A DNA stretch of 38,053 bases, taken from positions 1 to 38,053 of the IMG/VR virus record IMGVR_UViG_3300046808_000440, one strand, 5' to 3'. Source of the stretch: a virus. Lineage: Duplodnaviria; Caudoviricetes. The notes under the pieces are model-generated. The model made no database searches and was not told the DNA's origin. It saw only the letters and a program-made list of their open reading frames with translations. Each line of letters opens with the position of its first letter. The stretch's first letter is position 1. A program made the position numbers and the translations under genes. Shown piece by piece: positions 4 to 34,225 of this stretch.

Positions 4-447
4 TTATACTCTTATGTATTTTAATGTAACATTTAAATCAGAACCTGCTATGCTGCTACCTACTTGCGTTACTTCTATTGTTACATATTGTCCATAATTT
101 ACATTAATTGGTGTGGTTACTAAAGAGGAGTCTGTGGCTCCACTATTAATAGTTAATGTTTGCACTCCTGTTCCATTAACTTTGATTGATAAAGTTATTG
201 ATGATCCAGATGGAGCAGTTACAATCCGAGCAATTGCACTGTTAATAGTTATGTTGGTAGCTGGATACCATCTTACACCAACATCACCTACAGTTAGTGT
301 ACCGATTTGAGTATATTGTTTTTCTAGAGCAACTCCAACGACTGTTGTTGCATTAATAGTGCCGACAGTTAGAATGCCGCCAATCGTTGCATCTTGTCCG
401 ACTATAAGACCTTTCTTTACACGAAAGTCTTTTTCTGTTGTTGCCAT
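4..447 (-). CDS. Small virion fibre/adaptor protein: N-terminal KDFRVKKGL peptide plus C-terminal beta-sandwich domain
   Basis: 147 aa ORF. N-terminus resembles the DF(K/R)VKxGL start seen in T4-like fibre proteins. C-terminal domain (RWY..TAPSG..KVNG..YVTIEVTQVG..GSDLNV) is paralogous to that of 19146..19565. Confidence 0.7.
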   Translation of the reverse strand: MATTEKDFRVKKGLIVGQDATIGGILTVGTINATTVVGVALEKQYTQIGTLTVGDVGVRWYPATNITINSAIARIVTAPSGSSITLSIKVNGTGVQTLTINSGATDSSLVTTPINVNYGQYVTIEVTQVGSSIAGSDLNVTLKYIRV

Positions 448-467
448 CTGCTTCCCTATCCACAGAT
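446..467 (-). promoter_or_regulatory. Candidate RNA hairpin over the RBS/start codon (AUCUGU-GGAUAGGGAA-GCAGAU)
   Basis: 6-7 bp stem with G-U pairs whose 3' arm contains the start codon of 4..447; purine-rich 10-nt loop. Confidence 0.4.
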
Positions 468-479
468 ATTAATTGAATA

Positions 480-882: not shown

Positions 883-890
883 TATTTATT
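883..890 (-). promoter_or_regulatory. T4-like late promoter (AATAAATA)
   Basis: NATAAATA box at a gene junction, upstream of the SD of 480..860. Confidence 0.55.
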
Positions 891-1911
891 ACGCTGTAAA
901 TGTTCCTGATGATGTAAATGTGTGAATGGTGTAACCACCATTTGTTGTAACTGTTCCGCCAGTTCCTCTTTGTGATCCAGAGTACCGAATGACAACAATA
1001 CCAGAACCGCCAGCACCACCTATAGATCCTGATGGCGCTGTATATCCGCCAGCACCACCGCCACTGCCAGAATTTGCAGGGGCACTTTCCCCCGCAGAAG
1101 AATTAGTACCACGTCCTGCTCCGCCACCTCCAGAACCTCCAGTTCCACCTGTGCCGTTGTATGCTCCACCACCGCCACCACCAGCTCGAGTTACAGATGT
1201 CCCTGTAATTGAAGACGCTCTACCAGAACCACCATTTCCAGCAGTTGATCCAGAAGCATTTCCACCTACACTACCTGCACCACCACCTCCCGCTCCTGAA
1301 CCTAAATTGTCTTGGCCACCACTATTTGATCCACTACCACCTGCGTATCCTTGACCAGAAGTTCCAGAACCACCTGTAGCTATTGGACCTCCATTACTTG
1401 TACTACGAGATCCACCACCTCCAGAACCTCCAGCTATTCCATTTCCATTATATGCTCTAGATCCTCCACCACCAAGAGATTCTATAGTTGAAAATAAAGA
1501 AGATGATCCATTTCCACTATAAATACTATCAGCTGGTCCACTGGTACCTCCAGCACCAACTGTTACTGTATAATTGGTTCCAGCGATAACTGTTAATGGT
1601 GATTCTGCTGCTGCGCCACCTCCAGAAGTTTCTCCAGCAACAGAAGAACGATATCCACCTGCTCCACCGCCACCACCAATAGCGCCAGCACCACCTGCTC
1701 CACCTGCAATAACCAAATATTCTACTGAATATGACTGAGATGCTAATGTAGACCATCCAGTTCCGACATAGGTTTCTAAAGCATTGTTAGTAGTATTCCA
1801 TATAACTGTTCCGTTGCTTGGACTCTCTGGACGTGTTGCAACAATATTAATTAACCCCTGCGAAGAGGGTAATTGAGTAATTCCGTTTGTTCCGTCTATA
1901 GTTACTGGCAT
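889..1911 (-). CDS. Glycine-rich (polyglycine II) tail adhesin-like protein
   Basis: 340 aa: MPVTIDGTNGI start, RPxSPxNGTxIWNTT linker, EYLVIAGG...GGSGIVVIRY...HTFTSSGTFTA glycine-rich domain. Confidence 0.75.
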   Translation of the reverse strand: MPVTIDGTNGITQLPSSQGLINIVATRPESPSNGTVIWNTTNNALETYVGTGWSTLASQSYSVEYLVIAGGAGGAGAIGGGGGAGGYRSSVAGETSGGGAAAESPLTVIAGTNYTVTVGAGGTSGPADSIYSGNGSSSLFSTIESLGGGGSRAYNGNGIAGGSGGGGSRSTSNGGPIATGGSGTSGQGYAGGSGSNSGGQDNLGSGAGGGGAGSVGGNASGSTAGNGGSGRASSITGTSVTRAGGGGGGAYNGTGGTGGSGGGGAGRGTNSSAGESAPANSGSGGGAGGYTAPSGSIGGAGGSGIVVIRYSGSQRGTGGTVTTNGGYTIHTFTSSGTFTA

Positions 1912-1912
1912 A

Positions 1913-3013
1913 TTAACTTATTAAGTATCTTAGTATTACTATTCCTGACCCACCAGCGCCACTCGTTGACTGGTAACTTGCATTTGTTTCTCCAGATCCA
2001 CCACCGCCACCACCAGTATTTGCTCCAGCATTACCACCTTTACCGTTAGTGCTACTTGTATTGCCATTTAAACCTGGATTTCTACCTTGAGTATTTCCCA
2101 ATCCTGGTCCGACATATCCTGATGCTGCTCCGCCACCGCCACCACCTCCACCTGCTCCACCATTTCCAGCTCCAGTAGCGCCAGTCCAACCAGAACCACC
2201 ACCACCGCCAGCATAATAGAAGTTGTTACCATCTATATTTGATTGAATTCCTGAGCCACCTGCAGCTCCTGTAGATGTTCCAGTAGCACCTACTGCACCA
2301 GCACCACCACCTCCACCAGCAAATGCAGATGTTGCTGTACCACCAGCAAAACCTTGTCCTGTTGTTCCAGCACCTCCTGCGCCAGATCCATATCCACCAC
2401 CGCCACCAGAACCGCCAGAATTTCCTGAATTTTGTCCTTCACCACCACCTGCTCCACCACCAATTGCAGTTAATCCAAAAACAGTTGTGTTTGATCCATT
2501 ATTTCCTCGTCCAGTTCCTTCTGTTCCTGTGGTTGAAGCGCCACCAGCACCAATAACTACTGCATATTCATTTACGGATGGAGTGAATGTTCCAGTTAAA
2601 ACTCCACCTCCACCGCCTCCACCAGCAATATCATCGCCACCAGATCCACCACCTGCGACGATTAAGTACTCGACAGAAGTATTACCACCAACAGGAATAC
2701 CTGTTACAGAAAATGTTCCTGATGCTAAAAATGTATGAATTCTATAGTTACCAGATGTTGTTATTGTTCCACCTGTTGCTTGAATGCCAGTTAAACTTTG
2801 AACAGTTATCCAGTTATTACTATAATACATTTCCAATACATTTAATGTAGTATTGACACCAAATGTTCCATCACTTGGAGTTGCTGGTCTGTTTGCAGTC
2901 GTCCATGAAGGCATAACAATACCATTTGGTGCAACTATTTGAAATTTACCAGATGTGTCTGCCTCGACACTAAATCCAGTTTGAACTGTTGTTCCTGTTG
3001 TTATCGTGGTCAT
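1913..3013 (-). CDS. Glycine-rich tail adhesin-like protein (permuted form)
   Basis: 366 aa. The ATGG..HTF..SGTF segment precedes VEYLIVAGG, and the protein ends GSGIVILRYLIS. Confidence 0.75.
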   Translation of the reverse strand: MTTITTGTTVQTGFSVEADTSGKFQIVAPNGIVMPSWTTANRPATPSDGTFGVNTTLNVLEMYYSNNWITVQSLTGIQATGGTITTSGNYRIHTFLASGTFSVTGIPVGGNTSVEYLIVAGGGSGGDDIAGGGGGGGVLTGTFTPSVNEYAVVIGAGGASTTGTEGTGRGNNGSNTTVFGLTAIGGGAGGGEGQNSGNSGGSGGGGGYGSGAGGAGTTGQGFAGGTATSAFAGGGGGAGAVGATGTSTGAAGGSGIQSNIDGNNFYYAGGGGGSGWTGATGAGNGGAGGGGGGGGAASGYVGPGLGNTQGRNPGLNGNTSSTNGKGGNAGANTGGGGGGSGETNASYQSTSGAGGSGIVILRYLIS

Positions 3014-4137
3014 GCTGTAAATGTTCCTGATGATAAAAAAGTATGCACTGTATAACCAGTTATACTACTCACAGTGCCACCTGTTCCTCTTTGCGTACCA
3101 GCATAACGAATAATAACAATACCAGAACCACCATTGCCAGATGTAGGATTTGCGTGAGCACTTCCGCCACCTCCTCCACCAGTATTAGCACCAGCATTGC
3201 CACCATTTGCAGCACTAGAACCAGGACTTCCTCCAGTTGAGATACCACCTGCTCCAGAATTTAATGCTGAACCTCCACCCATTCCTGCTGGTCCAGTATT
3301 TGATCCACCACCACCGCCTCCACCAATACCACCATCTCCAGCACCATTACCAGATACATAAGCTCCGCCACCTCCACCACCTGCCCAATATAAAGATGTT
3401 CCATTAATGCTATTAAGAACTCCAGCGCCACCAGCACCAGCTTTGGCTGTAGCAGAAGCTGGAGTTTGCCCTACTGCTGCTGCTCCTCCACCACCTCCAC
3501 CTGGAAAATTTGTATTACCGCCACCGCCAGATCCACCTGCATATCCCTGCCCTGTTGTTCCTGATCCACCAGCTGCAGATGCATATCCAGAACCACCTCC
3601 ACCTGAACCACCAGATAATCCTGTAGTTAGGGACTCTCCAGCACCACCTCCACCGCCTCCAATAGCGGTTAAACCAAAAGCAGTTGTATTGGAACCATTA
3701 TTTCCTCTAGTTCCAGACTGTATGCCAACTACACCAGTGCCTCCTGCGCCAATTACAAAACTATAACTACCACCACCAGTGACAGTGAATGATGAAGACA
3801 AAACTCCGCCTGCGCCACCGCCTCCACCTAAATTTCCACCTCCTGACGCTCCACCAGCAATAATTAAATATTCAACGGAGTATGATTGTGACGCTAATGT
3901 TACCCATCCAGTTCCAGTATATGTTTCCAACACATTACTGGTTGTATTCCAAATAACAGTTCCGTTTGTTGGGTTTTCTGGTCTGGTTGCGACTGATTCG
4001 ATACCACCACCAGCACTACCTAATGTTAAGTTTCCGCTAGTAGCAGGCAATGTGATTACAGTATTTCCTGCAACAGCAGGTGCTTGTAAAGTTATTGTAC
4101 CAGATGTTGAACCAGCGAGAACTATCTTTCCGCTCAT
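3010..4137 (-). CDS. Glycine-rich tail adhesin-like protein
   Basis: Likely start is ATG 4137 (MSGKIVLAG), which forms an ATGA overlap with the upstream stop, rather than 4149. Paralog of 889..1911 and 4391..5425. Confidence 0.75.
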   Translation of the reverse strand: MSGKIVLAGSTSGTITLQAPAVAGNTVITLPATSGNLTLGSAGGGIESVATRPENPTNGTVIWNTTSNVLETYTGTGWVTLASQSYSVEYLIIAGGASGGGNLGGGGGAGGVLSSSFTVTGGGSYSFVIGAGGTGVVGIQSGTRGNNGSNTTAFGLTAIGGGGGGAGESLTTGLSGGSGGGGSGYASAAGGSGTTGQGYAGGSGGGGNTNFPGGGGGGAAAVGQTPASATAKAGAGGAGVLNSINGTSLYWAGGGGGGAYVSGNGAGDGGIGGGGGGGSNTGPAGMGGGSALNSGAGGISTGGSPGSSAANGGNAGANTGGGGGGSAHANPTSGNGGSGIVIIRYAGTQRGTGGTVSSITGYTVHTFLSSGTFTA

Positions 4138-4379
4138 AGAACAACCCATCTACTTGTTGCTGGAATAGTAACAGTTACACCAGCAGCAACAGTTATTGGA
4201 CCAGTAGAAGTTAATCCTTGATTTTCTTCTATGGTTACGTTTGAAGATATTGTTTTATTGTTTTTTAGTATGACACTACTTGTATCGGCATAACTACCAC
4301 CTCCACCTGCCTCTTGTGTAAGAGTTCCAGTAGTGGTAGTGTTTTTTGCTAGTTTGCTAAGGTTACGTGTTCTGCTCAT
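4134..4379 (-). CDS. Mini fibre adaptor protein
   Basis: 81 aa: MSRTRNLSKLA start, GGGG linker, and the C-terminal ..STGPITVAAGVTVTIPATSRWVVL module typical of phage fibre ends. Confidence 0.7.
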   Translation of the reverse strand: MSRTRNLSKLAKNTTTTGTLTQEAGGGGSYADTSSVILKNNKTISSNVTIEENQGLTSTGPITVAAGVTVTIPATSRWVVL

Positions 4380-4384
4380 AGTTA

Positions 4385-4392
4385 TATTTATT
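4385..4392 (-). promoter_or_regulatory. T4-like late promoter (AATAAATA), 5 nt before ATG
   Basis: Minus strand reads AATAAATA-TAACT-ATG; no SD present. Confidence 0.55.
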
Positions 4393-5425
4393 AGGCTGTA
4401 AATGTTCCTGATGTTGTAAATCTATGTACTGTATATCCATTTGCGGTAGTAACTATTCCACCAGTGCCTCTTTGTGTGCCAGCATAACGAATAATAACAA
4501 CACCAGAACCACCTGTGCCAGTATTATTTCCTGATCCAGATCCACCGTTATATTGTCCGCCACCACCACCGCCACCAGTATTAGCAGTGCCATTGACGCC
4601 CAATCCACTATGTTGCGATCCAGCACCGCCACCACCTAATCCACCTGATCCAGCTGTTCCACCTTCTTGCATATTTCCACCTCCACCGCCAGCATAATAA
4701 GTTGCTGTTCCAGATATAGAGTATTGTAAACCTATACCACCAGAACCAGCGACAGAAGCAGTACCAGCATTTGGAGTAGCACCAGCACCACCACCTCCAC
4801 CACCTGGATATCCACTGGCTTCAGGTCCTCCAACACCACCATTATTTCCTTGTCCTACTGTTCCGCTTCCAGCAGCAGTAGTTCTGCTGCCACCACCGCC
4901 AGATCCACCAGATAAACCAGTTAGTCCAACGCCAGCGCCACCTCCACCACCTAATGCAGTAGAAGTATTAAATGAACTATCTGTACCATTAGCACCTCTA
5001 GATGCATTTGGAGATGGATAACTTCCTATACCGCCAGCGCCACCAGCGCCAACAACAACAGGAAAAGTAGCACCAGGAGTAACAGTAGCAGCATTACCAT
5101 TTGGTTGTTTTGGGGATTCTGCGCCATAATATAGTAGACCTCCTGCCCCACCTCCACCACCAGAATGTGTTCCCCCACCACCACCACCAGCAACAATTAA
5201 ATATTCAATAGAATATGACTGAGATGCTAACTGATACCATTCTATTCCAGTATAAACCTCTAGTTTATTTGTAGTAGTATTCCAAATAATTGTTCCATTT
5301 GTTGGACTACCTGGTCTAGATGCAACTGATTCTATACCTCCACCAAGTTGCACGCTCGAATCTATCTTAGCCTGCGTTACTGCATTATTAGCAATAACAT
5401 TAGATGTAATTTTAGTAAGTGCCAT
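4391..5425 (-). CDS. Glycine-rich tail adhesin-like protein with MALTKI...AVTQAKID N-terminus
   Basis: 344 aa; same core as 889..1911 and 3010..4137 but a different N-terminal peptide. Confidence 0.75.
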   Translation of the reverse strand: MALTKITSNVIANNAVTQAKIDSSVQLGGGIESVASRPGSPTNGTIIWNTTTNKLEVYTGIEWYQLASQSYSIEYLIVAGGGGGGTHSGGGGGAGGLLYYGAESPKQPNGNAATVTPGATFPVVVGAGGAGGIGSYPSPNASRGANGTDSSFNTSTALGGGGGAGVGLTGLSGGSGGGGSRTTAAGSGTVGQGNNGGVGGPEASGYPGGGGGGAGATPNAGTASVAGSGGIGLQYSISGTATYYAGGGGGNMQEGGTAGSGGLGGGGAGSQHSGLGVNGTANTGGGGGGGQYNGGSGSGNNTGTGGSGVVIIRYAGTQRGTGGIVTTANGYTVHRFTTSGTFTA

Positions 5426-5429: not shown

Positions 5430-8400
5430 TTATTGTACTAAAAATGTTGATGTTGGTGGAGTAAAGTTTGCAGTATATCTAGCGAATCTAGTGATACGTA
5501 AGTCGTCGATGTAACCAGTTAATAATCCGTTGTTATCTAAATCTCTTCCAACGTCATATGTACCCGCTGTTCCGTTATAATTATTTGTATCAGAAGCGCT
5601 AGCTACCTCTATTCCATTTAAATATAGTTTTGTTACACTATTGTTTCTACAAAAAGCAACGTGTGTCCAAGATCCATAATAACTACTATAACTTGCTGAA
5701 AATAAGTTAGTTGTTCCGTTTACGCTTTGCCAATAAATACTATTTTGAAAAATAAGTGATGCCCAGTATCCAGTTCCAGTTGATGATGCAGCCACAAGTC
5801 CATGGGTGCCACCAGTATTAGTTGCATTTAACCAAAATTCTACAGTAAAATTGCCTGTACCAAATTGAAGCAAATTGTTATTTAAAATCGCCAAATAATC
5901 TCCAGTACCATCAAATACTAATGAACCTGTACCGTATTTTCTAGTTGATGTTACTATTTTTGCATCACCAACAGTTTCTAAAACATTACGAGAAGATATA
6001 TCAACTATGGCAGGATTGTTAAGGTTTAATAAAAAACTGGTATTTGAAATAGAAACTAAAGGCGCAGTTGGCGGTGTGAAAGCAGAAGTGTACAAAGCTG
6101 TTCCAACTAAAACTCTAAAATCACTAATATATCCTTGCCATGCACCACCATAAGTAGCATACTGTCCCAGACCATTTAATGTGCCTGCGGAATAGCTGGT
6201 GCTGACACTGCCTAATAAAACACCATTCATAAACACTCTAATAAGTCCTGCACTATCTCTAGTTATGGCTAAATGTTTCCAAGAATAAGATCCTTTAACT
6301 TGATCATTAGCTGTAGTTGCTAGTTGAGTCCCAACGCTACTTTTATCTAAAGTGACTACTCCCGTATCAACATTAATATATACAGGGAAATTACCAATAG
6401 TAAAAAGCCATCCACCTGCATTTGTAGAATATATCCAACCTTCAATAGTGAAAATACCTGATATATCAATATTGCTAGATGTAGTAAGTTTACTAGACCC
6501 ATCAAAGTATGCTGAACCACCATGTGTTACAGGAGAGTACGCAGCAGTTGGTTTAAATGGAGAGAAATTAAATACTTTAACATCACCGTTTTTAGTGATG
6601 GTAAAATTATTTGTAGAGTTATCAATAAATCTATTAGATTGACAAGTTAATAAAGATGTATTAGTAATAGCTGTAAGTGATGCGGTTGATGGTGTGAAAT
6701 TAGATGTATAAAGAGCAGTACCTTTGACAATACGAAAATTAGAAATATAACCAGTAAAATATTGAATACCTGAGTGTGAGTAAGTGCCTATTGTTGGATT
6801 ATATGTTGTATTACTAAAGTCTTGTGTACAAGCAGCAGATCCATTTGCCACACCGTTAATGTATAGGTAAGCAACCCCAGACTGACGAACAACGGCGAAA
6901 TGATTCCATTGATTTAACTGAAACTGATTAGTAGAAGTTAAAAATGTTGCAGCTCCGCTAGTATTAAAGTGAAAAACAAGATTATTAGCTGGCGTAGCAC
7001 TATTAGCTCCAGCTGTTATTAGAATATAATTTGTTCCTGATACAGTTTGAGCATATAAAGTAGCACCATAGGCTAGAGCAGTTAATTGATAAAACCATCC
7101 TTCTATGGTAAAATCTCCAGTTCCATAAGCAAATGCACTACCTGCTGGTGCTGTTAAAGAATCTCCACTTCCATCAAAGTAATTACTCCATCCTGCTGGA
7201 CTAAATGGCGAGAATGATCCTTGCGTCACATTACCAGTTCTAGTAACTGCAATATTATTTCCAGATGTATCAATAAACGTGTGATTGTTAACTGGCTGGC
7301 GATTTTGTAGTGTAAGGAGCTGAGTGCCAGACACAGCAGTTAATGGAGCGGTAGGTGGTGTGAAGGCAGCAGTGTAAACTGCGGTACCCTTAACCAAACG
7401 GAAATCACTCATATAGGTTTCTAAAGTGGCTGCAAAAGAACCACCATATTCAGCACCTAGTGAAATTCCATTGCCAGTTACTCCAACAAAAGAAAGTGTA
7501 TTTGTTACTTGACCAGCTAACGATCCATTAACATATAGTTTAAGGTTGTTTGATCCTGCACCCTCTCTTACACAAGCAATATATACCCATTGATAAGGAA
7601 CAAGTGTCGGACCTGTTATAATTACAGCACCATTCACGTATACAACAATAGCATTACCTGATGTGGAATAAATTAAAATTCCGTTTTGTCCTGCTCTGTA
7701 ATCACCAAGCTGAAACCATCTACGAGCATTACTTCCTGTTGCATAGGCAAAAAATTCTACTGTGAAATCTCCAGGAAGATCAAAACTTTCACTATCAGGT
7801 ATAGTTAAATAATCTCCTGTACCATCAAAGTATGTTGATCCTGTAGTAGTATCTGTTTCTGTAAATGGACCAAATGACGTTGTCTGTGGTGTATTAAAAG
7901 GTGTTATTGTATTATTAACAGAAGAGGCATCATATGTCATTCTGTTTGATGTAAAACCTAAAAATACTGTATTTGCTACGGCAGTTAACGCAGAAGTTGG
8001 TGCTGTAAATGAACTGGTGTATAATGCAGTTCCTTTAACGAATCGCATATTAGAAAGATATCCACCAAACTGTGATGGGTAATCTGGATGCATACTACGC
8101 CCAACTCTAATGTTATAAACTAAAGTGTCGACGTTGACTGTTCTACTAAATGTTGCGTTTAAAGTTCCATTAACGAAAAACTTTAGAGATCCAGCGCCAT
8201 CATAAGATACTGCGCAGTGACTCCATGCATTTAATGGAACAGAGTTAGCTGTAGAACTTGTACCTCCTGAATCAAATGACCAAGTATCAGTACCATTTAA
8301 TATCCAACTAAATCCAATAGTTGTTCCAACTGAAAAGATAAAAGAGCCACCTGAGTTACTTGGTCCAGTATAACTAGCATAAACTATTCCGCCAGTTATG

Positions 8401-14042: not shown

Positions 14043-14043
14043 T

Positions 14044-24800: not shown

Positions 24801-25385
24801 TGTATCTGTTGCATTAATGGTGATACTATCATTGACAGAATCTGTTGTTATGGTGACATTAGATCCTGCTACGAATGTTAACGTATCGGTAGTGCCATCT
24901 GCTATAACATTAGACTGCCCAGAGACTGCTATGGTAGAGAATACATTATTGACTGCACTACCAGTAATTGTTATTGTATCACTTGCATTGTCGGTAGTTA
25001 TAGTAATACCAGTGCCAGCTACCAATGTTAATGTGTCACTGGAACTATCGGCTGCTATCGTATTTTGACCTGTGACAGCAATATTTGTAAAGCTATTTGG
25101 AGAAGGAATATTTAAAGTTACCCACTGAACTCCAGAGCCAGTAGATTGCAAATATTGACCAGAACTTCCAGTGCTAGACGCAGCGGTTAAAGTTCCAGTC
25201 AGAATTAAATTTTGTGCAGTTTTATTTGTAAGTGTGGCAGTTCCAGTTAGCGTAACATAATTGTTAAGATCGCTAGCCTGAAGTGGCGTGTAGCCAAGTT
25301 TGTCTGTAATGGCAGTTGATGCTAACTTAGCAGCTGTTACGCTACTATCAGTTATATCACCAGTTCGTATTGTAGTTCGTGCCAC
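21897..25385 (-). CDS. Long repeat-rich tail fibre
   Basis: 1162 aa with a GTG start after TAGGA. Contains GLNADLLDG, AATKQYVD and TLTNKT fibre motifs and eight F.TIAV.GQ..V.AD..DTLT..AG repeats; ends GKAIALSMFFG. Confidence 0.8.
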   Translation of the reverse strand: MARTTIRTGDITDSSVTAAKLASTAITDKLGYTPLQASDLNNYVTLTGTATLTNKTAQNLILTGTLTAASSTGSSGQYLQSTGSGVQWVTLNIPSPNSFTNIAVTGQNTIAADSSSDTLTLVAGTGITITTDNASDTITITGSAVNNVFSTIAVSGQSNVIADGTTDTLTFVAGSNVTITTDSVNDSITINATDTVSNSFTTIAVSGHSNVVADSSTDTLTLAASSGIDISTNATTDTITITNTGVTSVNGLTGSVSAQNILDAVKTLDGPASGLNADLLDGNDGSYYQTALGYTPVNKAGDTMTGNLTLAGAPTSALHAATKQYVDDVAAGLNWKSAVNLLAASNVALTGNTNTLVIDGHAALTSADTGYRILLKNQTTAANNGIYTYTDNGTTYTLSRATDADTFQELEGTSVLVLEGTTYGLTGWVQTNHYLTSFSGQTWVQFNAGGGGGGSDTFRTIAVNGQSSVVADSSTDTLTLVAGTGIVITTDAATDSITINSTGGSGGGSGGITTLVDKFTGDGTTTQYTLSSTPTNEDHTIVVMEGVVQFKDTYSVSGNVLTFTTAPYNGYNIEITTISGVLVNAFSTIAVAGQSNVVADSSSDTLTLSAGSGIAITTTAGTDTIGVAVDNTVVTLTGSQTLTSKTLTSPILGGITTSASGNVVFKPATNILEVQGDGVSVDGQIQLNCHVNSHGQKIASQPHSQAATNKLLLPGGSTIGNADAVLVSDTGTQTLTNKTISLANNTVSGTLAQFNTAVTDADLATIAGSETLTNKTISLANNTVSGTIAQFNTAVTDADIATLAGAETLTNKTLSSPTISGDITGDVSTTGNLKSLFSSGDEGGEIFLAKPQTNTTIGGTGVTVDVYQNKIRFFENGGTNRGAYLDLSGASAGVGSNLLAGGGGGSSNSFATIAVAGQNNVVADSSTDTLTLVAGSNVTITTNDSTDTITISATGGGGGGNTFSTIAVAGQSNVVADTTTDTLTLVAGSGISITTDAATDTVTITNTGGGGGGGASETFKTISVFGQSNVVADSATDTLTLSAGSGVSITTDPITDTITISATGGGGGGGTDIPVIVNSFIGNGTQTVFNLSTTPGNKDQTLVIVGGVPQAKATYSVSGATLTFSEAPDLNYEIEIIIFAQSTTPGDGTSVGKAIALSMFFG
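22948..23187 (-). repeat. 111-bp (37-aa) tandem duplication inside the fibre
   Basis: TLTNKTISLANNTVSGT(L/I)AQFNTAVTDAD(L/I)AT(I/L)AG(S/A)E twice; protein nearly identical, with many synonymous differences. Confidence 0.85.
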
Positions 25386-25394: not shown

Positions 25395-27020
25395 CTACGA
25401 TAAAGTTCTTGCTATTACTGATATTCGTTTAAAGTCAATCTGCGTGCTAAGATTAGCTGGTGATACTGTCAAATTAATATTGCCTGATGCCAATGTTGCG
25501 CTAACAGTAATCAGTGGAGATGCTCCAGTATACATTGTTCCATACTCAGTTACAAATGCATCCGTGCCATTATGAGTTACTAAAACTTCTGTGCAATGAA
25601 CCTGATTTGTCCATATTGCTTGTATCAAGTATTTAGCAGTTCTAAACTCAGTTGCACTGTAAGAGTCGACTACTTGATTTGCAGTAGTGTTAACTAGACT
25701 TTGCTCTCCAGATATTAAACCAGTTGATGGAGAAATAACTTGGGTAATATAAGCTGCACCATAAGAAAGAATTTCAATCGTATCACCATTACCCAGTGAT
25801 GGAGTAAATGACAGTGAAGTTCCATTGGTACCAGTATAATCGACACCTTCAATTAAACGAACACCGTTTTGATAAACATCAACCTTACCTACATCGTAGG
25901 TTAGTGTGTTTGAATTTGCATCTGCACCAGATATTGTAGATGTAGTGCTTGTAATATTATAAACATATTTCTGAAAATCTCTAAGAGAAGCATCAGTTGT
26001 CACTCCCGAAATGATTCTAAAATCAATTTTATCATTAAGATTTGGAGCTGCTACGAAAGTTAAATTTGATCCAGTTACAGTATAATTTGCAGTAGATTGA
26101 ACAACACCGTTTAGTGTAACGATTACGTTTTCATCAGTAGAAGGAACTAATCCTAAAGCATAAGTTGTTGTAGTTCCATCAGAAACAAAAGATGTAACTG
26201 TCACATAATTTTCACTAAGAGCAGTTCCACCAGCGGCAGTGGAAGTGATTGTTATTGTATCAGTGGTAGCATTGGTAGTTAAAGTTATACCTGAACCAGC
26301 TACTAAGGTCAGTGTATCTGAACTTGAGTCTGCTACTACGTTTGGTTGTCCTGCAACGGCAATAGTTGTAAACGAATTGCCAGATGAAGTTGCATTAAAA
26401 GTTATAGACTGTGGTGTTGCATTTGGATCCGTGGTAATGGTCATGCCAGTACCAGCAACAAATCGAACAGTATCTAATCCAGTTGCAACTAATGGAGATT
26501 GCCCAGTTACTTCCCACGTTTTAAACGTAGAATTCATTCCAATTTTAACTGCGCCAGATCCAAGATCTGTTACGTCGAAACCAGAATCAGTATCAAATCT
26601 GATTATACTGACATTGCTAACCGAACCAGTTATAACATTAGAACCATCTATCTCACTAACAGTTAAAGCAGATGCAGGTGTTACCCACTGAACACCGATG
26701 CCAGTTGATTGTAATACTTGTCCGTTAGTTCCTGCCAGACCACCAGCAGTTAGAGTACCAGTCAGCGTTAGATTGTTCGCTGTAGCACTATTGATCGTGG
26801 GTGATGTTAATGTTTTATTAAGAAGTGTTTCTGTGCCAGCTATTGTTGCATATGATGCAAGCTGAGTTGAATCTGGAAAGTACTTTATTGTATTCGTTGA
26901 ATCTTTATAAAATAACTTTCCATCAGTATAGTTGAGCGCTAACTCACCATACTCAAGATCTGTAAGTAGAGGTACTTTATTTTGTACCGCTGACTTTTTA
27001 AGTTTGACTCTATTCGCCAT
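25395..27020 (-). CDS. Tail fibre/branching hub with Mtd_N-like N-terminus
   Basis: 541 aa. KLKKS..P...LEYGELALNYTDGKLFYK start, two TIAV repeats, two small beta domains, and a C-terminal FRTAKYLIQ..EVLVTHNG..EYG domain typical of T4-like cyanophage fibres. Confidence 0.75.
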   Translation of the reverse strand: MANRVKLKKSAVQNKVPLLTDLEYGELALNYTDGKLFYKDSTNTIKYFPDSTQLASYATIAGTETLLNKTLTSPTINSATANNLTLTGTLTAGGLAGTNGQVLQSTGIGVQWVTPASALTVSEIDGSNVITGSVSNVSIIRFDTDSGFDVTDLGSGAVKIGMNSTFKTWEVTGQSPLVATGLDTVRFVAGTGMTITTDPNATPQSITFNATSSGNSFTTIAVAGQPNVVADSSSDTLTLVAGSGITLTTNATTDTITITSTAAGGTALSENYVTVTSFVSDGTTTTYALGLVPSTDENVIVTLNGVVQSTANYTVTGSNLTFVAAPNLNDKIDFRIISGVTTDASLRDFQKYVYNITSTTSTISGADANSNTLTYDVGKVDVYQNGVRLIEGVDYTGTNGTSLSFTPSLGNGDTIEILSYGAAYITQVISPSTGLISGEQSLVNTTANQVVDSYSATEFRTAKYLIQAIWTNQVHCTEVLVTHNGTDAFVTEYGTMYTGASPLITVSATLASGNINLTVSPANLSTQIDFKRISVIARTLS

Positions 27021-27064: not shown

Positions 27065-29590
27065 TTAATATGTTCCGCCGTCAATGTCTCCGTATACGAG
27101 TGCAGTTCCAGCAGAATTAACCTGTAAAACTTGACCAGCAGTACCCATAGAAAGGGTAGTATATGTATTACCTGCTGCTCCAACTATTAATTGATTGGCA
27201 CTAATTGATGACAATCCAAGACCACCATATGCTGGTCCGATTGGATTGCCATTCCAGGTACCAGTAGTAATAGTACCAAGAGTTGTGATAGATGTTTGTC
27301 CAACATAAGTGGAAGCAATATCGATACTGTTTGCATTGGCAGTAATTCTATCTGTTGTTCCAACTACATCATATACACCAGATGTGAATGTTAATCCGTT
27401 ACCTGCTGTGGTAGAAAGGATCTGTAACTGATCGCCAATAACACCAAGACCGCCAGCAAGTGCGACATTGAGAGAGAATTCATTTCCAACTAAAGCAAGA
27501 CCAGAGCCAGCGGTATAAGTACCAGCGCCAGCAAACTGCTGCCAAACGAGAGGATCGGTTCCTACTACAACAACTTCTTCTGTTTGAACCCAGCCAGTGT
27601 TATTATAGAGATTTCCATTCTCAACGAAAACGAAATCACCACCAGCGATTTCTGCACCAGTATCAAAATCTGTTGCGCGAGTGAGAATTGTTCCGCCAGT
27701 TGCCCAAGTATAGATACCGTTTCTTGCAGCTGGTGTTTGATTCTTAACAAGAATACGATCACCGTTGATTAATGTATGACCATCAATGACAGTAACAGCT
27801 ACAGACAGAGTCAGTGTAGCTCCTACACCATCAGTTCCGTTATTGTATGTTACTGTTCCTCCAGTGATAGTTTCCAAAGATGCTTGCGTTGCGACATGAC
27901 ATGCTTCATGAATATGCAAACCTTCTGCAAGAGTATCAACATAGTTCTTCGTAGCTGCATCTTGTGGGAATTGTGGCTCTGCCAGGTTTTTAATTCTGGC
28001 AGTAGAAGCATCGATGGCACCAGTACCATTTGGATTTAGAACTATGTCACCGTTAGTATCGGTGGACATAATTTCATTGCCATTAATTCTGATATTGTCT
28101 ACATCTAATTGGGTTACGCCACCAAGAGAAGTAGAAGTAGCACCGAGTGCCACGTTTGTAGTACCAATTGTTATGCTAGAGTTAGCCAGTTGTGTATTCG
28201 AAACACCAGCTGTCTTAATCGTAACAGCACCTTCTGTTACATCAAAGCTGGCAGAACTAAACGAAGCAACACCGATATTTGTTGTGGTAGCAAGTTCACC
28301 AGTAACAGTGATTACGTTAGTAGCGTGGGTTACATCAATACCTTCGCCACCACGAATTTCAAACGTATGAGTCGATGGAACTAAAGCACCCGAATCAGTC
28401 GTAATAGATTTAACAACTCTATCAACCAGTTCAACAGCACCAAGTGTAACCGTGAAATCGTTTACATCAAAGGAAGCAACACCCTTATTTGTGGTAGTTG
28501 CCAACTCGGCATCAATTGTTACAGTACCAGCAGTGTCATCATAGGTAACATCAATACCTTCTCCTGCTATAACTGCACCAGCAGTAGCGTCTTGAATATA
28601 TTCTTGCAGAGAAGTAAATTCATCACCGATGTAAGTATTCTTAAGTATGGTCTTACCAGATCCATTTGGCAGAATACTAATGTCGCCATTATTATTTGTT
28701 GAGCTGATAATATTGCCATCGATATTAATATTATCAACTTGTAGAGATGTGAACGCACCACTATTTGGCGTTGTATTTCCAATTGGTGTTCCGTTGATAG
28801 AAGTAAATGTTACAGAAGCACCTTGAATGCTACCCTGAACATATAAGTTTCCAGCGATACCAACACCGCCATCGACAACTAAAGCGCCAGTGGTATAAGA
28901 AGTAGCCTGAGTAGTTGCATCGATGTTTACAGTTGCAACAGATGTTCCGATATCGATACTATCTGTATCAATAGACATTTTCAACACGCCATTGCTGTAG
29001 AATCTCAGAGTGTCATCTGATGCACCTGGAGTTAATTCTGCAGAAATGTATGTTAGTCCATCAACCGAGCGAACACCACCGAGTGATGCCCAGTTTGTTC
29101 CATCGTATCCTTCGAACTGACTTGATTCGCTGTTAAAACGAATACCACCAGCAACTGATGGTGCTCTTGTTGCAGTATTACCTACTGGGAGAATGAATGC
29201 ATTTGAACCGATAACCTGTACATATCCAGAACCATTTGGATCAAGATAGATGTTACCGTTTAATTCTGTGCTGCTTAAAGTGTTACCGTCTAATGTTAAA
29301 TTATCAACATTTAAAATGTCGATCTTATTTTGAGAATCTGTAATGATCGCTGATGATGCAGTAAGAACACCAGGAGTATGATCTAGTTTATCTGTAAAAT
29401 ACTGTCCGCCAATAACTATGTGGTTGGCTGCATCTGGTGGAGTTCCTGTCTCAGTTCCTATACCAATGTATAATCTTCCACCGCCAGCAACAGTACCATA
29501 ATCTGCTGCGGAATATGCTAGTTCGCCAGCGACAAGGTGAGATGGATTACCTTGTGTAGTCGAGCGTTTTATTCTGATATATGATGCCAT
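27065..29590 (-). CDS. Tail fibre protein with Mtd_N-like N-terminus
   Basis: 841 aa. IRIKRS..P..L.AGELAYS start, three VDN..(I/L).GN..S....G.I...PNG.G repeats, ATTTN.GVASF repeats, DAATKNYVD..GDRILVKNQ domain; ends IDGGTY. Confidence 0.8.
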   Translation of the reverse strand: MASYIRIKRSTTQGNPSHLVAGELAYSAADYGTVAGGGRLYIGIGTETGTPPDAANHIVIGGQYFTDKLDHTPGVLTASSAIITDSQNKIDILNVDNLTLDGNTLSSTELNGNIYLDPNGSGYVQVIGSNAFILPVGNTATRAPSVAGGIRFNSESSQFEGYDGTNWASLGGVRSVDGLTYISAELTPGASDDTLRFYSNGVLKMSIDTDSIDIGTSVATVNIDATTQATSYTTGALVVDGGVGIAGNLYVQGSIQGASVTFTSINGTPIGNTTPNSGAFTSLQVDNINIDGNIISSTNNNGDISILPNGSGKTILKNTYIGDEFTSLQEYIQDATAGAVIAGEGIDVTYDDTAGTVTIDAELATTTNKGVASFDVNDFTVTLGAVELVDRVVKSITTDSGALVPSTHTFEIRGGEGIDVTHATNVITVTGELATTTNIGVASFSSASFDVTEGAVTIKTAGVSNTQLANSSITIGTTNVALGATSTSLGGVTQLDVDNIRINGNEIMSTDTNGDIVLNPNGTGAIDASTARIKNLAEPQFPQDAATKNYVDTLAEGLHIHEACHVATQASLETITGGTVTYNNGTDGVGATLTLSVAVTVIDGHTLINGDRILVKNQTPAARNGIYTWATGGTILTRATDFDTGAEIAGGDFVFVENGNLYNNTGWVQTEEVVVVGTDPLVWQQFAGAGTYTAGSGLALVGNEFSLNVALAGGLGVIGDQLQILSTTAGNGLTFTSGVYDVVGTTDRITANANSIDIASTYVGQTSITTLGTITTGTWNGNPIGPAYGGLGLSSISANQLIVGAAGNTYTTLSMGTAGQVLQVNSAGTALVYGDIDGGTY

Positions 29591-29602: not shown

Positions 29603-30034
29603 TTAATAGTGTCCGCCAGTTATGTCTTGCATATCCAACAGTCTTGTTGCAGTCCACTCATTATTTTTATAAACCAATACCGAACCTTCTTCTGCATTAC
29701 TTGTAACTGCGCTTAATGGATTAGCAGCTGCCCAAAAGTAACCATTGTATATAACCATATAAGGGAGTTGGGAGCTGCTTCCTGCAGGATTCCAGAGAAC
29801 CCCATCCGCATACGCGACCATCCCTGAAACAGGACTTGTTGGAGCAGTAGAACTGACTCCAAGACGTATAATTTGATCGCCATTCCTAACCCAGCCATTA
29901 TATAATGTAGTACCATTACCGAATATTGTATATAACTCGGTAAAATTAGAGTTGATCTTGGCGCCAGCGTCGCGTAACGGATCACCGCTACCGTCATTCG
30001 GTTGTTCCCCTAGATCTATAATTTCTTTAGCCAT
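29603..30034 (-). CDS. Short baseplate-anchoring fibre connector with T4 gp9/gp10-like N-terminus
   Basis: MAKEIIDLGEQPNDGSGDPLRDAGAKINSNFTELY matches the gp9/gp10 N-terminal signature; ends ITGGHY. Confidence 0.75.
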   Translation of the reverse strand: MAKEIIDLGEQPNDGSGDPLRDAGAKINSNFTELYTIFGNGTTLYNGWVRNGDQIIRLGVSSTAPTSPVSGMVAYADGVLWNPAGSSSQLPYMVIYNGYFWAAANPLSAVTSNAEEGSVLVYKNNEWTATRLLDMQDITGGHY

Positions 30035-30064: not shown

Positions 30065-30790
30065 TTATTTCTGGTTTAGCACTATTGACAAGTTATCAAT
30101 GAATGGACCCTGTGTATCTCCACCGACCAAAAAATTTATATCTAATACGCTGGCTATTGCGGCAGTAGGTTTATTCGACAAAGATCCAGTTTTCCAAACT
30201 GCTGCATGGGTGCCATTGGCACTAGAAGCCATAATAGTTCCGTTCCCAATACTTCCAAATCTACCTACGTTGTTAAACGTAACTGAGGAAGTTTGGTTAG
30301 CCAACAAAAATTCAGAAGCAACTGTAGCGCCAATAATTCCTGTAGTTTGTGCGTCTGCAGTAACTGACCCACCACCCATATTTGTTATAAAATTTGTAAT
30401 ATCACCGTCACGCTGCACAAAACTACCATTTTCGCCAAGTAAAAACATAGCTCCACCTGTCGCTAAATAACTGGCATATTTTGTTTCTACTGCTTCTGTC
30501 ATATACGTATCATAACCAACATCCCATATATGGGCATAATTCTCAACAGTCACATCTGGTATAGCCAAAAAACTACTGTATGTTGTAACTGTTGCTGGAA
30601 TAAATGTTAACGCAGTTTCTCTGCTGCTTATTGTAGAAGCGATACTAGATGGATTAACATCATTAGTATACATGTCTGGTCTAATCGAGTTTGGATCATA
30701 AACTATCAATACATTTTTAGACTTTGTTATACTTCGATCCATAATTCTTCGATTCGACCAAAACCCTATATGTGCTCCACCAATCGGCAT
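30065..30790 (-). CDS. Hypothetical protein, probable alpha/beta (class I GATase-like/DUF4350-like) fold
   Basis: 241 aa; Y.HIWD..KYASYLATGGAMFLLGEN motif; N-terminal MPIGGAHIGF. Confidence 0.6.
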   Translation of the reverse strand: MPIGGAHIGFWSNRRIMDRSITKSKNVLIVYDPNSIRPDMYTNDVNPSSIASTISSRETALTFIPATVTTYSSFLAIPDVTVENYAHIWDVGYDTYMTEAVETKYASYLATGGAMFLLGENGSFVQRDGDITNFITNMGGGSVTADAQTTGIIGATVASEFLLANQTSSVTFNNVGRFGSIGNGTIMASSANGTHAAVWKTGSLSNKPTAAIASVLDINFLVGGDTQGPFIDNLSIVLNQK

Positions 30791-30791
30791 A

Positions 30792-31517
30792 TCAATCTCC
30801 AGTAAAAATATATTTACGCAACTTTACGTTATCAACTAACAATGCAGAGCCGACGACAGTACCGTATGTTTGATCCCAAGAACCACAAACAAACACAAAG
30901 TAATAAGCTCCTTCTTCACCAGCAGTAATAGTTCTCTCATATTTTGTCCAAGAAGTAGCAGTTCCACGAACTGCTGCTGAATCATTCAAAAGAAAAATAA
31001 TATTTCCAAAAGTATTAAAAGCATACGCTCTAGCAGCATATGCATCATTACGCTGCTGATTTGAAGAACTAAATGCTCTCCAATAAAATTCTATGGTGTC
31101 TCCAACATTCGCAAATACTGCATTGTTAGAGTAGAAATACGGTCCATAAAGACTGCCACCCTCACCACTTTGTGCTGCATAACTTTCCAAAGCTACGCAT
31201 TTTAATCCGCCATCTGGTGGCGGAGAACCAATACCGCCACCTTCATTATGAAGAGCTATTCTTCCGATATATTCTTGGGCATTATTACCATAAACATCTC
31301 CTGGACTACCATAAGGGTTCGGGTTTGGATTAGGTGGTGCTGCTATACCATTAATAACTGTTGGACTTCTTCCTGAACTATTGAAGAAAAATCTATTGTT
31401 GACCATAGTCCACTCAGTTAAATCATTCTCAAATCCCCCGTTTGGATACTGATCTGCACCAGGTTGTCCACCAGGGTAACGAAATCTAAATCCTAATCTA
31501 GAACCACCAATAAACAT
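30792..31517 (-). CDS. Hypothetical protein, probable carbohydrate-binding jelly-roll
   Basis: 241 aa; NGGFE..L..W start and LLVDNVKL end, as in CBM-like domains; N-terminal MFIGGSRLGF. Confidence 0.6.
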   Translation of the reverse strand: MFIGGSRLGFRFRYPGGQPGADQYPNGGFENDLTEWTMVNNRFFFNSSGRSPTVINGIAAPPNPNPNPYGSPGDVYGNNAQEYIGRIALHNEGGGIGSPPPDGGLKCVALESYAAQSGEGGSLYGPYFYSNNAVFANVGDTIEFYWRAFSSSNQQRNDAYAARAYAFNTFGNIIFLLNDSAAVRGTATSWTKYERTITAGEEGAYYFVFVCGSWDQTYGTVVGSALLVDNVKLRKYIFTGD

Positions 31518-34225
31518 TACGCATATCCAGTGGTCATCACAGAATAATATGTTGTTCCATCATAGAATATGCTTATTAAATCAATAGCGTTAGCGGTAGT
31601 GCTAAGTGTCTTAAATCCGACTGCGAATTTATACGCAGCATTCGCTGTCATAACTTTACTTCCAGTTCCATCCTGCTGAATAATAAGAGTCATACTTTGA
31701 CCAGCAACCATACCAGTGGCAGGGTTTAATGTGAAGTTGGAATTTGCAATATACTTTTGTACGCTACCATTATCAAAGTTTGGTGTAATGGCAGTACCAG
31801 TGTTTCCTGCATCAAGATAACTATCAACGAACTCAGCATTGACAGTCATGGAAAGATTACCAGTATCAGTGAAGTTTACGGTACCAGAACCTGTTAGGTT
31901 TCTTGCAAGGTTGACTGTCAGTGTTGGTTTGTTAACTAGAGTTGCCCAGTTAGCAACCACTGCCTCTTCAGCAGAAGCAGTAAGTCTACCATAAGCATCA
32001 ACGGTATAACGTGGCACATTAGTCGCGACAGATGCAGTTCCAGCATCTCCGTATGAACCTGCTGTTACTCCAGTTGTAGGAAGATCAATATTAACAATAG
32101 TTGTTTCTTTAGATACTACAGCATAAGCAGTAGCACCAATACCAGGATCTGGATTAGAATCTGTAATCGTTACAGTTGGTTCTGTTCTATAACCAGTACC
32201 AGCATTCGTTAAATTGATTCCAACAACAGTATGTGTTCCAATGGTCGATGTTACAACTGCATTAGATCCGCCACTTGGTGCAGTATCAGTAATTGTTACA
32301 GTTGGTGGCATCAAATATCCAGAGCCAGCATTGTTAATTGTAACACTTGTTATTGTTCCACCAGTAATATTTGCAGTTGCCGCTGCGTTAGATCCATCTC
32401 CACCGATAGTTACAGATGGTGCAGTTAAGTATCCTGAACCTGGATCAGTGATGGTGATTGAGGCAATACCAAATTGTCCTATTGTACAAGAAGCAGTTGC
32501 ATTAGTTCCATCACCAGTGATAGTTACGGATGGAGCAGCCAGATATCCTGATCCTGCATTTGTTAAAACAATTCCTGTTACAGTTGATGTTCCAATTGTT
32601 GCGCTGGCAGAAGCATCAGTGCCACTACCAGAAAGTCTGGTGATAGTTACAGTTGGTGGTGATAGATATCCAGAACCTTGATTTAGTACGTCAATACCGA
32701 TGATACTTGAAGTGCCGATAGTAGCAGATGCGGTTGCCGATACACCATCACCAGTGATTGTTACGGTTGGTGCAATCAAATATCCAGAACCAGCGTTTGT
32801 TAAGTTAATGCTCTCGACGGTAAATTTACCAATAATAGCAATAATCTGCGCGCCAACACCAGGATTTGGATCTGTATCTAAAATTGTAACTGTTGGTGGA
32901 TTTAAGTATCCAGAACCAGCATTTGTAATATTAACATCAATAATAACACCAGAAGAAATAACTGGAACCCCAGTAGCAGTAACGCCACCTGGTTTTTCTG
33001 GAGCAGAGAAAGTGATAGTAGTTGTTGCTGCGTGATATCCAGAACCACCAATAAGACCGACATAACATTGAATAACTGGAGAACCAGAGAATACTACTGT
33101 ACCAGTGGCAGTGACACCACCTGGTTTTTGTGGTGCTGAGAAAGCAACAGTTCCGTTGGTATAAGCAGCACCTACGTTAGTGATTGTAGTACCAGTAACA
33201 GCAGCGCCAGAAAGTTCTGCTTGGGCAGTAGCGTTTACGCCACCTGCAACTTGTGGTGCAGAAATTGTAACTGTTACGTTCCCATTAGTATAGCCAGAAC
33301 CACCAATTAAGTTGGTGATCGCAGTAATGGGAGAACCTGACAGAGAAACAGTACCAGTGGCAGTAACTCCACCTGGCAATGTTGGAGCAGAGAATGTTAC
33401 GTTGGCATTACCGAACGTATATCCAGATCCTGCATTTGTTACAGTTACTGTTTGAACTCCGTTACCAGTAAAGTTTGCAGTTCCTGTTGCGGTGACACCA
33501 CCAACAACTTGTGGCGCAGAGAATGTAACAGGAGCAGTTGTATATCCAGTACCTTGCGCTGTGATAGAAACACCACTGACAGATCCACCAGAAAGTGTGA
33601 CGTTGGCAGTTGCCTGAACACCACCAACCTTATCTGGTGCAGAAAGTGTCGCTGTTGTAGTTGGGTGACGATATCCAGTACCAGCATTAGTAATATTAAA
33701 ACCAGTAACAGAAGCGCCAGATAGTGTAACTGTTGCAGTCGCTTGTGTTCCGCCAGCATCATCTGGCGCAGAAATTGTTACTGTTGTAGTTGGATAATGA
33801 TATCCAGAGCCATTAGTCGCTAAAAATAGTCTCCAAATAGCACCGAAAGGATCAATAGGATCTGGTGGCAATAGTTCAATGTTAACTGTTTCTAATGGAG
33901 AATAAACCGCAGAAACATAGTCACCTTCGGTATCAATACCGAGAACAACTGCGTTATGAACAACAGTTGTTGGCAGAGTTATATTTCCCTCACCATCAAA
34001 TGTTACGTTTCCGCTAACGTCCCCAGTTAGCGTCAATGTTCTATTTGCATTTAATGCATTAAGAGCTGCTACTATGTTTGCTTGAGTACTGGTAGTAAGA
34101 AGTGCAAGATCACCGACATTTAATACTGTCTGGTTAGACTGAGTTATTGTACCGTTGGTTTTTTGTCTCCACTGGTCAAACGTATCAGTTTGGGGGACTG
34201 TGATAACTGGAGTTTGAAGAGCCAT
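31517..34225 (-). CDS. Baseplate-associated fibre with 14 (N/G)xGSGY repeats
   Basis: 902 aa. TDTFDQWRQKTN T4-like N-terminus, LTGDVSG and GVTAGSYG..TVDAYGRLT fibre motifs, C-terminal GQSMTLIIQQDGTG..LSTTANAIDLISI.YDG domain. Confidence 0.75.
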   Translation of the reverse strand: MALQTPVITVPQTDTFDQWRQKTNGTITQSNQTVLNVGDLALLTTSTQANIVAALNALNANRTLTLTGDVSGNVTFDGEGNITLPTTVVHNAVVLGIDTEGDYVSAVYSPLETVNIELLPPDPIDPFGAIWRLFLATNGSGYHYPTTTVTISAPDDAGGTQATATVTLSGASVTGFNITNAGTGYRHPTTTATLSAPDKVGGVQATANVTLSGGSVSGVSITAQGTGYTTAPVTFSAPQVVGGVTATGTANFTGNGVQTVTVTNAGSGYTFGNANVTFSAPTLPGGVTATGTVSLSGSPITAITNLIGGSGYTNGNVTVTISAPQVAGGVNATAQAELSGAAVTGTTITNVGAAYTNGTVAFSAPQKPGGVTATGTVVFSGSPVIQCYVGLIGGSGYHAATTTITFSAPEKPGGVTATGVPVISSGVIIDVNITNAGSGYLNPPTVTILDTDPNPGVGAQIIAIIGKFTVESINLTNAGSGYLIAPTVTITGDGVSATASATIGTSSIIGIDVLNQGSGYLSPPTVTITRLSGSGTDASASATIGTSTVTGIVLTNAGSGYLAAPSVTITGDGTNATASCTIGQFGIASITITDPGSGYLTAPSVTIGGDGSNAAATANITGGTITSVTINNAGSGYLMPPTVTITDTAPSGGSNAVVTSTIGTHTVVGINLTNAGTGYRTEPTVTITDSNPDPGIGATAYAVVSKETTIVNIDLPTTGVTAGSYGDAGTASVATNVPRYTVDAYGRLTASAEEAVVANWATLVNKPTLTVNLARNLTGSGTVNFTDTGNLSMTVNAEFVDSYLDAGNTGTAITPNFDNGSVQKYIANSNFTLNPATGMVAGQSMTLIIQQDGTGSKVMTANAAYKFAVGFKTLSTTANAIDLISIFYDGTTYYSVMTTGYA
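32110..33815 (-). repeat. Protein-level repeat array: 7 type-A plus 7 type-B GSGY units of ~38-43 aa
   Basis: Type A is GY..T(F/I/L)SAP..GG..AT; type B is GY..P(T/S)VTI..G..A. Coordinates approximate. Confidence 0.85.

Follow-up and report, generated by a model that had tools for sequence, protein, structure and literature searches.

The window analysed here, all 38,053 nucleotides of IMG/VR virus record IMGVR_UViG_3300046808_000440, is a fibre gene cluster of an uncultured T4-like aquatic phage. Gene calling places 28 genes, all on the minus strand, across the whole 38-kb contig; plus-strand open reading frames lie opposite real genes and were set aside. A DUF4815 baseplate-type protein, with cyanophages and Pelagibacter phage Mosig as its best phage matches, comes first. 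It is followed by 26 fibre-type genes in a block of about 34 kb, and the cluster leaves the contig at position 4. The block contains three recurring domains, called sockets A, B and C here, and a few conserved N-terminal peptides, called plugs. We consider it probable that the fibres join through at least five kinds of peptide-and-domain joint, forming a tree with one baseplate anchor and about ten non-enzymatic tips.

Sockets and plugs in the window

A preliminary description of this DNA reported four A domains, two B domains and a C domain at the end of a 541-aa hub protein, and all are present at the positions claimed (Table 1). The other A copies are 40-53% identical to the first, with 17 invariant columns. 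A and B had been described as separate domains, but they prove to be homologous (hhalign 97%, E 1.7e-11), and the idea of three unrelated socket domains was rejected. Profile scores separate the two, with 4 ambiguous cases among 406 XD domains. The B profile matches 7RFO residues 193-249 (E 8.5e-8) and 9K4A (E 6.5e-8), and the A profile matches 7Y22 (E 1.6e-10), 9K4A (E 1.4e-7) and, at only E 0.039, 7RFO. These matches are to solved branching hubs: CBA120 TSP4 (193-249), K1 depolymerase, Kp7 tail adaptor and P-SCSP1u fibre.

In a monomer model of the last 271 residues of the 541-aa protein (mean predicted local distance difference test score, pLDDT, 89.6), socket A (residues 2-68) superposes on XD2 of TSP4 (7RFV 187-250; Z 10.5, root-mean-square deviation (rmsd) 1.5, 64 aligned). 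A and B together align with XD2-XD3 of 7REJ (Z 10.3, rmsd 13.9 with the domains hinged, 137 aligned), a comparison that barely probes B alone. Sequence homology and a modelled small beta jelly-roll of about 60-70 residues mark A and B as XD2/XD3-type domains. Pfam reports DUF4183 on socket A of a 234-aa hub, and residues 1-156 of that hub match a fibre of RaK2-group Klebsiella jumbo phages at about 31-35% identity, which links the window's sockets to the best-known hyperbranched system.

The modelled socket C (residues 160-271) resembles 9F4A_LA 175-302, part of a 303-aa, gp9-sized chain of the T4-like phage KP1 (Z 11.3, rmsd 2.9, 110 aligned), and its top Foldseek match is T4 gp9 (1QEX, E 3.5e-5). 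By sequence alone the similarity to gp9 is weak (P 0.003), and PDB sequence searches with the profiles of socket C and its plug returned nothing relevant.

The plugs reported previously, four A-type starts, one MSRTRNLSKL (B-type) and one KDFRVKKGL (C-type), are likewise all present. The A-type start is common to the genes beginning at 25385, 19565, 10303 and 5425; a strict pattern matches 3/4, the GTG-started gene at 25385 fitting more loosely. The B-type start occurs once (4379), as does the C-type (447). When 2305 distinct 28-residue N-termini, taken from the window and 232 viral loci, were clustered without guidance, such starts came out among the largest classes (Mtd-like 64, C-type 60, A-type 46, 110-aa adaptor 45, YIG 39 and, seventh, B-type 33). 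The classes found de novo include PA, PB, PB2 and PC, short conserved N-terminal peptides on secondary proteins. At 10 bits or more, profiles recognize 84 (PA), 71 (PB) and 114 (PC) real N-termini and 0, 0 and 1 shuffled ones, the profiles having been built from the same gene set that was scored. Another frequent class, FP, heads proteins with A, B or ABC sockets (L076 2750-9291, L047 10145-11818 and L364).

The C-type profile aligns with the first 24 residues of T4 gp34 (P 1.9e-4, probability 47%), a match that is weak in HMMER (4.6 bits), and the profile of the Mtd-like class scores 11.6 bits on the start of T4 gp37. A likeness of PA, PB and PB2 to the starts of T4 gp11 or gp12 was dropped (best 3.1 bits). 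The label 'Mtd-like' alludes to the family Mtd_N (PF18454). The fibres previously called Mtd_N-like, of 841 and 541 aa, show no Pfam match to that family at E 0.01.

Homologues of all three sockets are known attachment joints, which is why we read the domains as docking sites. In KP32 an XD branching domain and an N-terminal peptide are needed for assembly of receptor-binding protein RBP2 (PMC13352976), and in T4 the gp34 N-terminus attaches to the gp9 C-terminal domain (PMC3004832). The simplest reading of C/PC would be the gp9-gp34 joint of T4; A/PA and B/PB would represent two variants of the XD/peptide joint tested in KP32.

Co-occurrence and order of plugs and sockets across viral loci

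Three socket queries returned 75, 79 and 80 loci, which were merged into 92 clusters with one locus taken from each. In this training set, plug class pA is found in 28/45 loci with socket A vs 5/47 without, pB in 28/52 vs 1/40 with and without socket B, and pC in 26/33 vs 1/59 with and without socket C. No off-diagonal combination is enriched at locus level, and the co-occurrence asked of the proposed pairs is thus seen for each plug class with its own socket only. Restriction to the strict window-type classes gives 15/45 vs 3/47 (A), 22/52 vs 1/40 (B) and 26/33 vs 1/59 (C), and these counts hold when sockets on the plug's own gene are discounted. Gene order points the same way: 33/47 A, 22/37 B and 35/39 C plugs are found no more than three genes behind a socket of their class, when 13, 8 and 11 are expected from permuting gene order within loci (p 0.0005 for each diagonal).

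A held-out set was drawn through three other anchors (233 loci, 4 training-like ones removed, 74 clusters) and scored with frozen profiles. It repeats the association for pC (6/13 vs 0/61, with adjacency in 7/7, p 0.001) and, at locus level, for pA (7/13 vs 4/61); B is too rare there to test. Directly behind genes with socket C only, the next gene has a C-type start in 27/33 training and 6/11 held-out cases. Four cultured phages were examined, and in three of them a C-type start comes directly behind the C domain: S-SRM01 and C48C1 by profile, Cygsa01 by eye.

Two further candidate joints emerge from gene order. A DGG-type tail directly precedes a Mtd-like start in 28/42 vs 23/1159 training and 25/30 vs 20/1122 held-out cases, and a hydrophobic tail directly precedes a 110-aa adaptor in 19/24 vs 22/1177 and 13/16 vs 38/1136. 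L009 (10471-16747) has four genes in tandem that open with this adaptor, which in three of them is joined to a longer body.

Natural swaps occur as well. One body, 'E', stands behind A, C and PB2 peptides in the window's 139-aa and 147-aa proteins and a 238-aa protein of its relative G001 (33-38% identity), and by class these three peptides correspond to the three sockets of the 541-aa hub. Wherever the neighbours can be seen, a small and a large protein come next after each E-body protein. PB2 accompanies hub-type B (6/10 vs 1/42), and PB accompanies other B domains (21/42 vs 1/10). Tips differ behind unchanged plugs in L003 and L005. The L005 version of the 234-aa hub (80% over 219 aa) runs straight into a body whose end resembles that of the LamG tip, with no tail or adaptor in between.

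The expected match in copy number is imperfect, counts not always being equal. In the window B stands at 2:1, likely a truncation because in G001 a PB2 gene sits just past the homologue of the window's last gene. Window and relative combined would likely give A 4:4, B 2:2 and C 1:1, as far as two genomes allow.

Several results weigh against strict pairing. Training loci were chosen by their sockets and the classes learnt on them, so lineage and circularity inflate the counts; the grouping of classes and the patterns for the tails were settled once first counts were known, and dereplication reduces lineage effects without removing them. Adjacency is also raised for B-to-pA (p 0.012) and B-to-pC (p 0.007), as multi-socket hubs would produce. 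In the held-out set, A-plug adjacency was not repeated (5/13, expected 4.0, p 0.36), and pB (2/8 vs 0/66) comes from two ABC hubs, so that B is not told from A or C. Residue covariation over 39 C/PC pairs is not above shuffled pairing (top z 5.3 vs 5.6); one C/PC position pair is never acidic-acidic, with too few lineages to count. No recognized plug accompanies the socket in 17/45 (A), 24/52 (B) and 7/33 (C) training loci and in 6/13, 6/8 and 7/13 held-out loci. Truncation and missed variants explain some of these, but others look like true exceptions: L385, L355 and L476 have three A sockets each but lack a clear A plug, and gp9-type starts come after C domains of L462 and L419. In L462, L419 and L476, gp9/gp10-type starts follow C or A domains in place of the usual plugs. 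The C-ending gene of S-TIM5 has no co-directional gene behind it, and some XD domains of CBA120 bind another XD or a whole head domain rather than a peptide (PMC8825819). Finally, 10/52 A-plug genes carry an A socket themselves, as do both secondary hubs of the window, which implies either a finer code or partly stochastic assembly. A tree of 87 A domains is too poorly resolved to show sub-codes or decide A-to-A wiring. The proposed cognate pairs (A with MALT-type, B with MSRTRNL-type and C with KDFRVKKGL starts) are thus backed by co-occurrence, gene order and docking-domain homology, and not by held-out A adjacency or covariation.

Proposed assembly and its alternatives

The analysis shows the repeats, their folds in models, the docking-domain homology and the class-specific co-occurrence and gene order, and these suggest the following assembly (Table 1). 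A gp9/gp10-type anchor (gene at 30034) would hold the 841-aa trunk, and the trunk the 541-aa hub, through joints of DGG tail and Mtd-like start. The anchoring role is suggested by sequence: PF07880 covers residues 3-54 of the 143-aa protein (Pfam, E 8.5e-8), in agreement with the gp9/gp10-like anchor first proposed. The hub would branch three ways through its XD-type sockets A and B and its gp9-type socket C, each socket trimer receiving the N-terminal peptides of a class-matched partner trimer. Two putative A-class partners (1162 and 234 aa) would bring further sockets, and hydrophobic tails would lead through 110-residue adaptors to more tips, the tree growing outward from the baseplate.

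Table 1. Features of the fibre cluster in window coordinates
Feature	Positions	Strand	Evidence or detail
Large T4-like baseplate/virion protein (DUF4815), interrupted by contig end	34428..38051	-	PF16075 E 3.5e-24; structural-context marker
902-aa repeat fibre	31517..34225	-	last ~100 aa a candidate dock for the two 241-aa proteins behind
Two 241-aa candidate tips	30065..31517	-	common IGG...GF start; sequence
143-aa putative anchor	29603..30034	-	T4 gp9/gp10 N-terminal region; DGG-type C-terminal tail 29606-29626
841-aa putative trunk fibre	27065..29590	-	Mtd-like start, DGG-type tail 27068-27088; start class and adjacency
541-aa putative hub	25395..27020	-	Mtd-like start, then sockets A, B, C
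Domain A, four copies	26013-26198, 23655-23840, 21972-22157, 9656-9841	-	
Domain B, two copies	25758-25982, 9869-10072	-	first copy in 541-aa hub, long, hub-type XD
Domain C	25398-25724	-	end of 541-aa hub
1162-aa putative secondary hub	21897..25385	-	A-type plug 25323-25385; A sockets 23655-23840, 21972-22157; hydrophobic tail 21900-21932
117-aa adaptor behind hydrophobic tail	21534..21887	-	tail-then-adaptor adjacency
Two glycine-rich candidate tips	19577..21534	-	PF12810 on 330-aa protein; phrog_2295 on 321-aa protein
139-aa adaptor	19146..19565	-	A-type plug 19503-19565 on E body
Cassette behind E adaptor	10335..19149	-	81-aa and 167-aa small proteins; three related large proteins (841, 609, 1235 aa)
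234-aa putative tertiary hub	9599..10303	-	A-type plug 10241-10303; socket B 9869-10072; socket A 9656-9841; hydrophobic tail 9602-9631
109-aa adaptor	9260..9589	-	single jelly-roll beta-sandwich, no named family; model pLDDT 94
1276-aa candidate tip, five LamG domains	5430..9260	-	PF13385, 5 stretches, E 1.5e-74
344-aa glycine-rich candidate tip	4391..5425	-	A-type plug 5363-5425; PF21722
81-aa adaptor	4134..4379	-	B-type plug 4347-4379; ~48-aa end domain (phrog_5342 end match)
Three glycine-rich candidate tips behind 81-aa adaptor	889..4149	-	PF21722 on all three
147-aa adaptor	4..447	-	C-type plug 397-447 (T4 gp34-like start) on E body

Beyond the hubs, Pfam assigns glycine-rich, LamG and Ig families among the 28 proteins, and NCBIfam matches none on 18 of the 28. 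LamG and glycine-rich tips from the preliminary description are confirmed by Pfam, its CBM-like tips have no Pfam or NCBIfam match, and propellers are a lead only. The 841-, 609- and 1235-aa cassette proteins are mutually similar, one with LamG, Ig and glycine-rich parts (Pfam), and might be propellers, with every match below the search threshold. A PF07953 match in the 1276-aa tip lies across one of its LamG domains and was attributed to fold overlap rather than to a toxin. The 139-aa and 147-aa adaptors are 35% identical over 105 aa, and G001 shows the continuation of the cluster beyond position 4. The 109-aa adaptor model has no Foldseek match at E 0.001 and no clear structural relative; its best Z, 10.3, falls within a flat list of similar jelly rolls, and its Atlas neighbours are all without names.

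The ~48-aa end domain of the 81-aa adaptor (4137-4280) closes many fibres (also in L079, L152, L183 and L140), with short beta-strand starts on the genes behind it, and is probably another joint type. A 126-aa protein (480-860, phrog_7759) recurs among glycine-rich tip genes in L005, L006, L009 and L076 and is perhaps a tip cap or chaperone. A chain conserved in L067, L069, L072, L074 and relatives runs adaptor - FLK[A] - ISG[A] - PA[A] - RPR; all its links use socket A, each with its own variant of the start, and it would serve well for testing a fine code.

One alternative, compatible with the proposed assembly, keeps the joints and places the tree on the neck, collar or head, or divides it into several small independent trees; we regard this as unlikely. 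XD-like folds do occur in neck and tail-adaptor proteins (8HQO, 9OAB, 9EFK), and the neck genes of G001 include one with a second gp9/gp10-type start, but in the window the trunk opens with the T4 gp9/gp10 N-terminal region and the cluster follows baseplate genes, as it does in G002. The 902-aa fibre, with its different start and its own two followers, is probably a separate small branch. In L155 and L157 the same end domain likewise stands before two genes that have a start in common. From sequence, the last ~100 aa of this fibre likely dock the two 241-aa proteins, which have no family match in Pfam, NCBIfam or PHROG-type scans.

Slightly less likely again is a stochastic-mix tree, in which the peptides dock, the XD sockets are promiscuous, and the apparent code is lineage and inherited gene order. 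A and B share one fold, the branching domain of K11 accepts the non-cognate peptide of its close relative KP32 (PMC13352976), and the failed held-out A adjacency, the scarcity of B in the held-out set, the null covariation result and the sockets of their own class on plug proteins count in its favour. Against promiscuity stand the clean separation of A from B by profile, the division of PB2 and PB between hub-type and stand-alone B, and the ABC hubs of the window, G001, L034, L192, L316 and L364, which are accompanied by starts of different classes.

That the peptides only start trimer folding or cap a shaft, with the domains acting as knobs, sugar binders or XD-to-XD contacts from one shuffled module pool, seems improbable: the second half of the A-type start does resemble a shaft repeat also internal to proteins (profile hits 2 internal vs 66 N-terminal), gp9-C-like folds do terminate several tailspikes (6E1R, 6C72, 7XY1; Z 8-10) and XD-XD binding is known in CBA120 (PMC8825819), but one body carries three peptides mirroring the hub's three sockets, C-type starts sit right behind C-only genes, and in T4 and KP32 the homologous pairs serve for attachment.

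More tentatively than the tree itself, we suggest that aquatic phages share a reusable alphabet of at least six orthogonal joints, made by excising and multiplying T4 connectors and adding new tail-and-adaptor links. Its sub-codes would be so fine that a whole tree, or a self-extending dendrimer in cases where plug proteins bear sockets of their own, could be read in the genome. Cyanophage- and pelagiphage-like fibre clusters are mostly annotated as hypothetical proteins. If the typed joints are real, virion architecture and the number of receptor-binding tips would become predictable from sequence, and tip turnover behind constant plugs countable. They would also connect the single-use connectors of T4 (gp9-gp34, gp10 XD, gp37 start) with a construction kit of general use, and provide small trimeric couplers, orthogonal to one another, for assembling proteins. 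The cultured phages S-SRM01, C48C1 and Cygsa01 make the idea testable.

Comparison with known systems

Cellulosome cohesin-dockerin scaffolds use typed socket and plug modules to set varied tips on hubs. The likeness is an analogy only, and Pfam finds no cohesin or dockerin family on any of the 28 proteins.

The preliminary description knew of no such system, but the principle is in print: peptide-to-XD docking, two peptides per adaptor and trees of 9-14 fibres are all published. A branching domain with a conserved N-terminal peptide has been described and tested in Klebsiella phages (PMC6872550, PMC13352976), and K1-5 sets two different peptides on one adaptor (PMC6872550). As in KP32, K11, KP34, K1-5 and G7C, the window has a gp10-like XD on one fibre and a conserved N-terminal peptide on the next (PMC13352976, PMC6872550). 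Those Klebsiella and coliphage systems are podophages with two receptor-binding proteins and depolymerase tips. The window instead brings together five or more types of joint within one cluster, arranged in multiple layers, with glycine-rich, LamG and possible propeller tips. The anchor-branch systems described in Klebsiella phages and Ackermannviridae have beta-helical depolymerase tips, whereas Pfam finds no pectate-lyase-type family on the window's 28 proteins.

The resemblance to CBA120 TSP1-4 is closer in fold: A and B are of the XD2/XD3 type and stand in tandem in the hub, and secondary proteins carry further XD domains (PMC8825819). In T4 and CBA120, XD2 and XD3 bind different partners (PMC8825819). 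CBA120, in the portions available, differs from the window in docking by head domains or XD2 and in having four proteins only, with no gp9-type socket and no tail-and-adaptor joints. RaK2, K64-1 and phiKp24 build trees of 9-14 fibres (PMC10253068, PMC6872550, PMC9700779) and share with the window multi-XD hubs and reused standard units, with four conserved peptides in K64-1. Their wiring has been modelled with XD and D1/D2 units only, and the available descriptions hold no class-by-class correlation of sockets and peptides across genomes.

Five or more reusable codes in one non-enzymatic tree were not found in the openly available literature searched, nor were a multiplied gp9-gp34 joint, a tail-and-adaptor link or class-specific pairing across aquatic phages. 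These negatives concern main texts; overlapping motifs may lie in the supplements of PMC6872550 (peptide logos) and PMC10253068. The available portions of PMC12143355, PMC10575957 and two bioRxiv preprints likewise have nothing on such codes.

The individual joints also resemble those of T4 (gp9-gp34, gp36-gp37 and gp10-gp11/gp12; PMC3004832, PMC8825819). The fold of socket C is that of the gp9 C-terminal domain, the C plug resembles the beginning of gp34 and the Mtd-like start that of gp37, and the anchor has the gp9/gp10 N-terminus. The fibre of T4 is linear and fixed, with each joint used a single time, whereas here the joints are detached, multiplied and chained. The gp9 connector unites N-terminal anchor and C-terminal socket in one ~290-aa chain; in the window, anchor (30034) and socket (27020) belong to different proteins with an 841-aa fibre between them. 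Linear chains with three socket-C-ending proteins each occur in L161, L164, L166 and L169 (around 7000-15000), and L161, L166 and L169 contain as many as three consecutive C-PC links. Behind each of the chained proteins lies a gene whose C plug is a variant specific to its position, which suggests sub-codes that fix the order of a segmented fibre. The system described here is likely a richer version of the branching trick of Klebsiella and E. coli phages.

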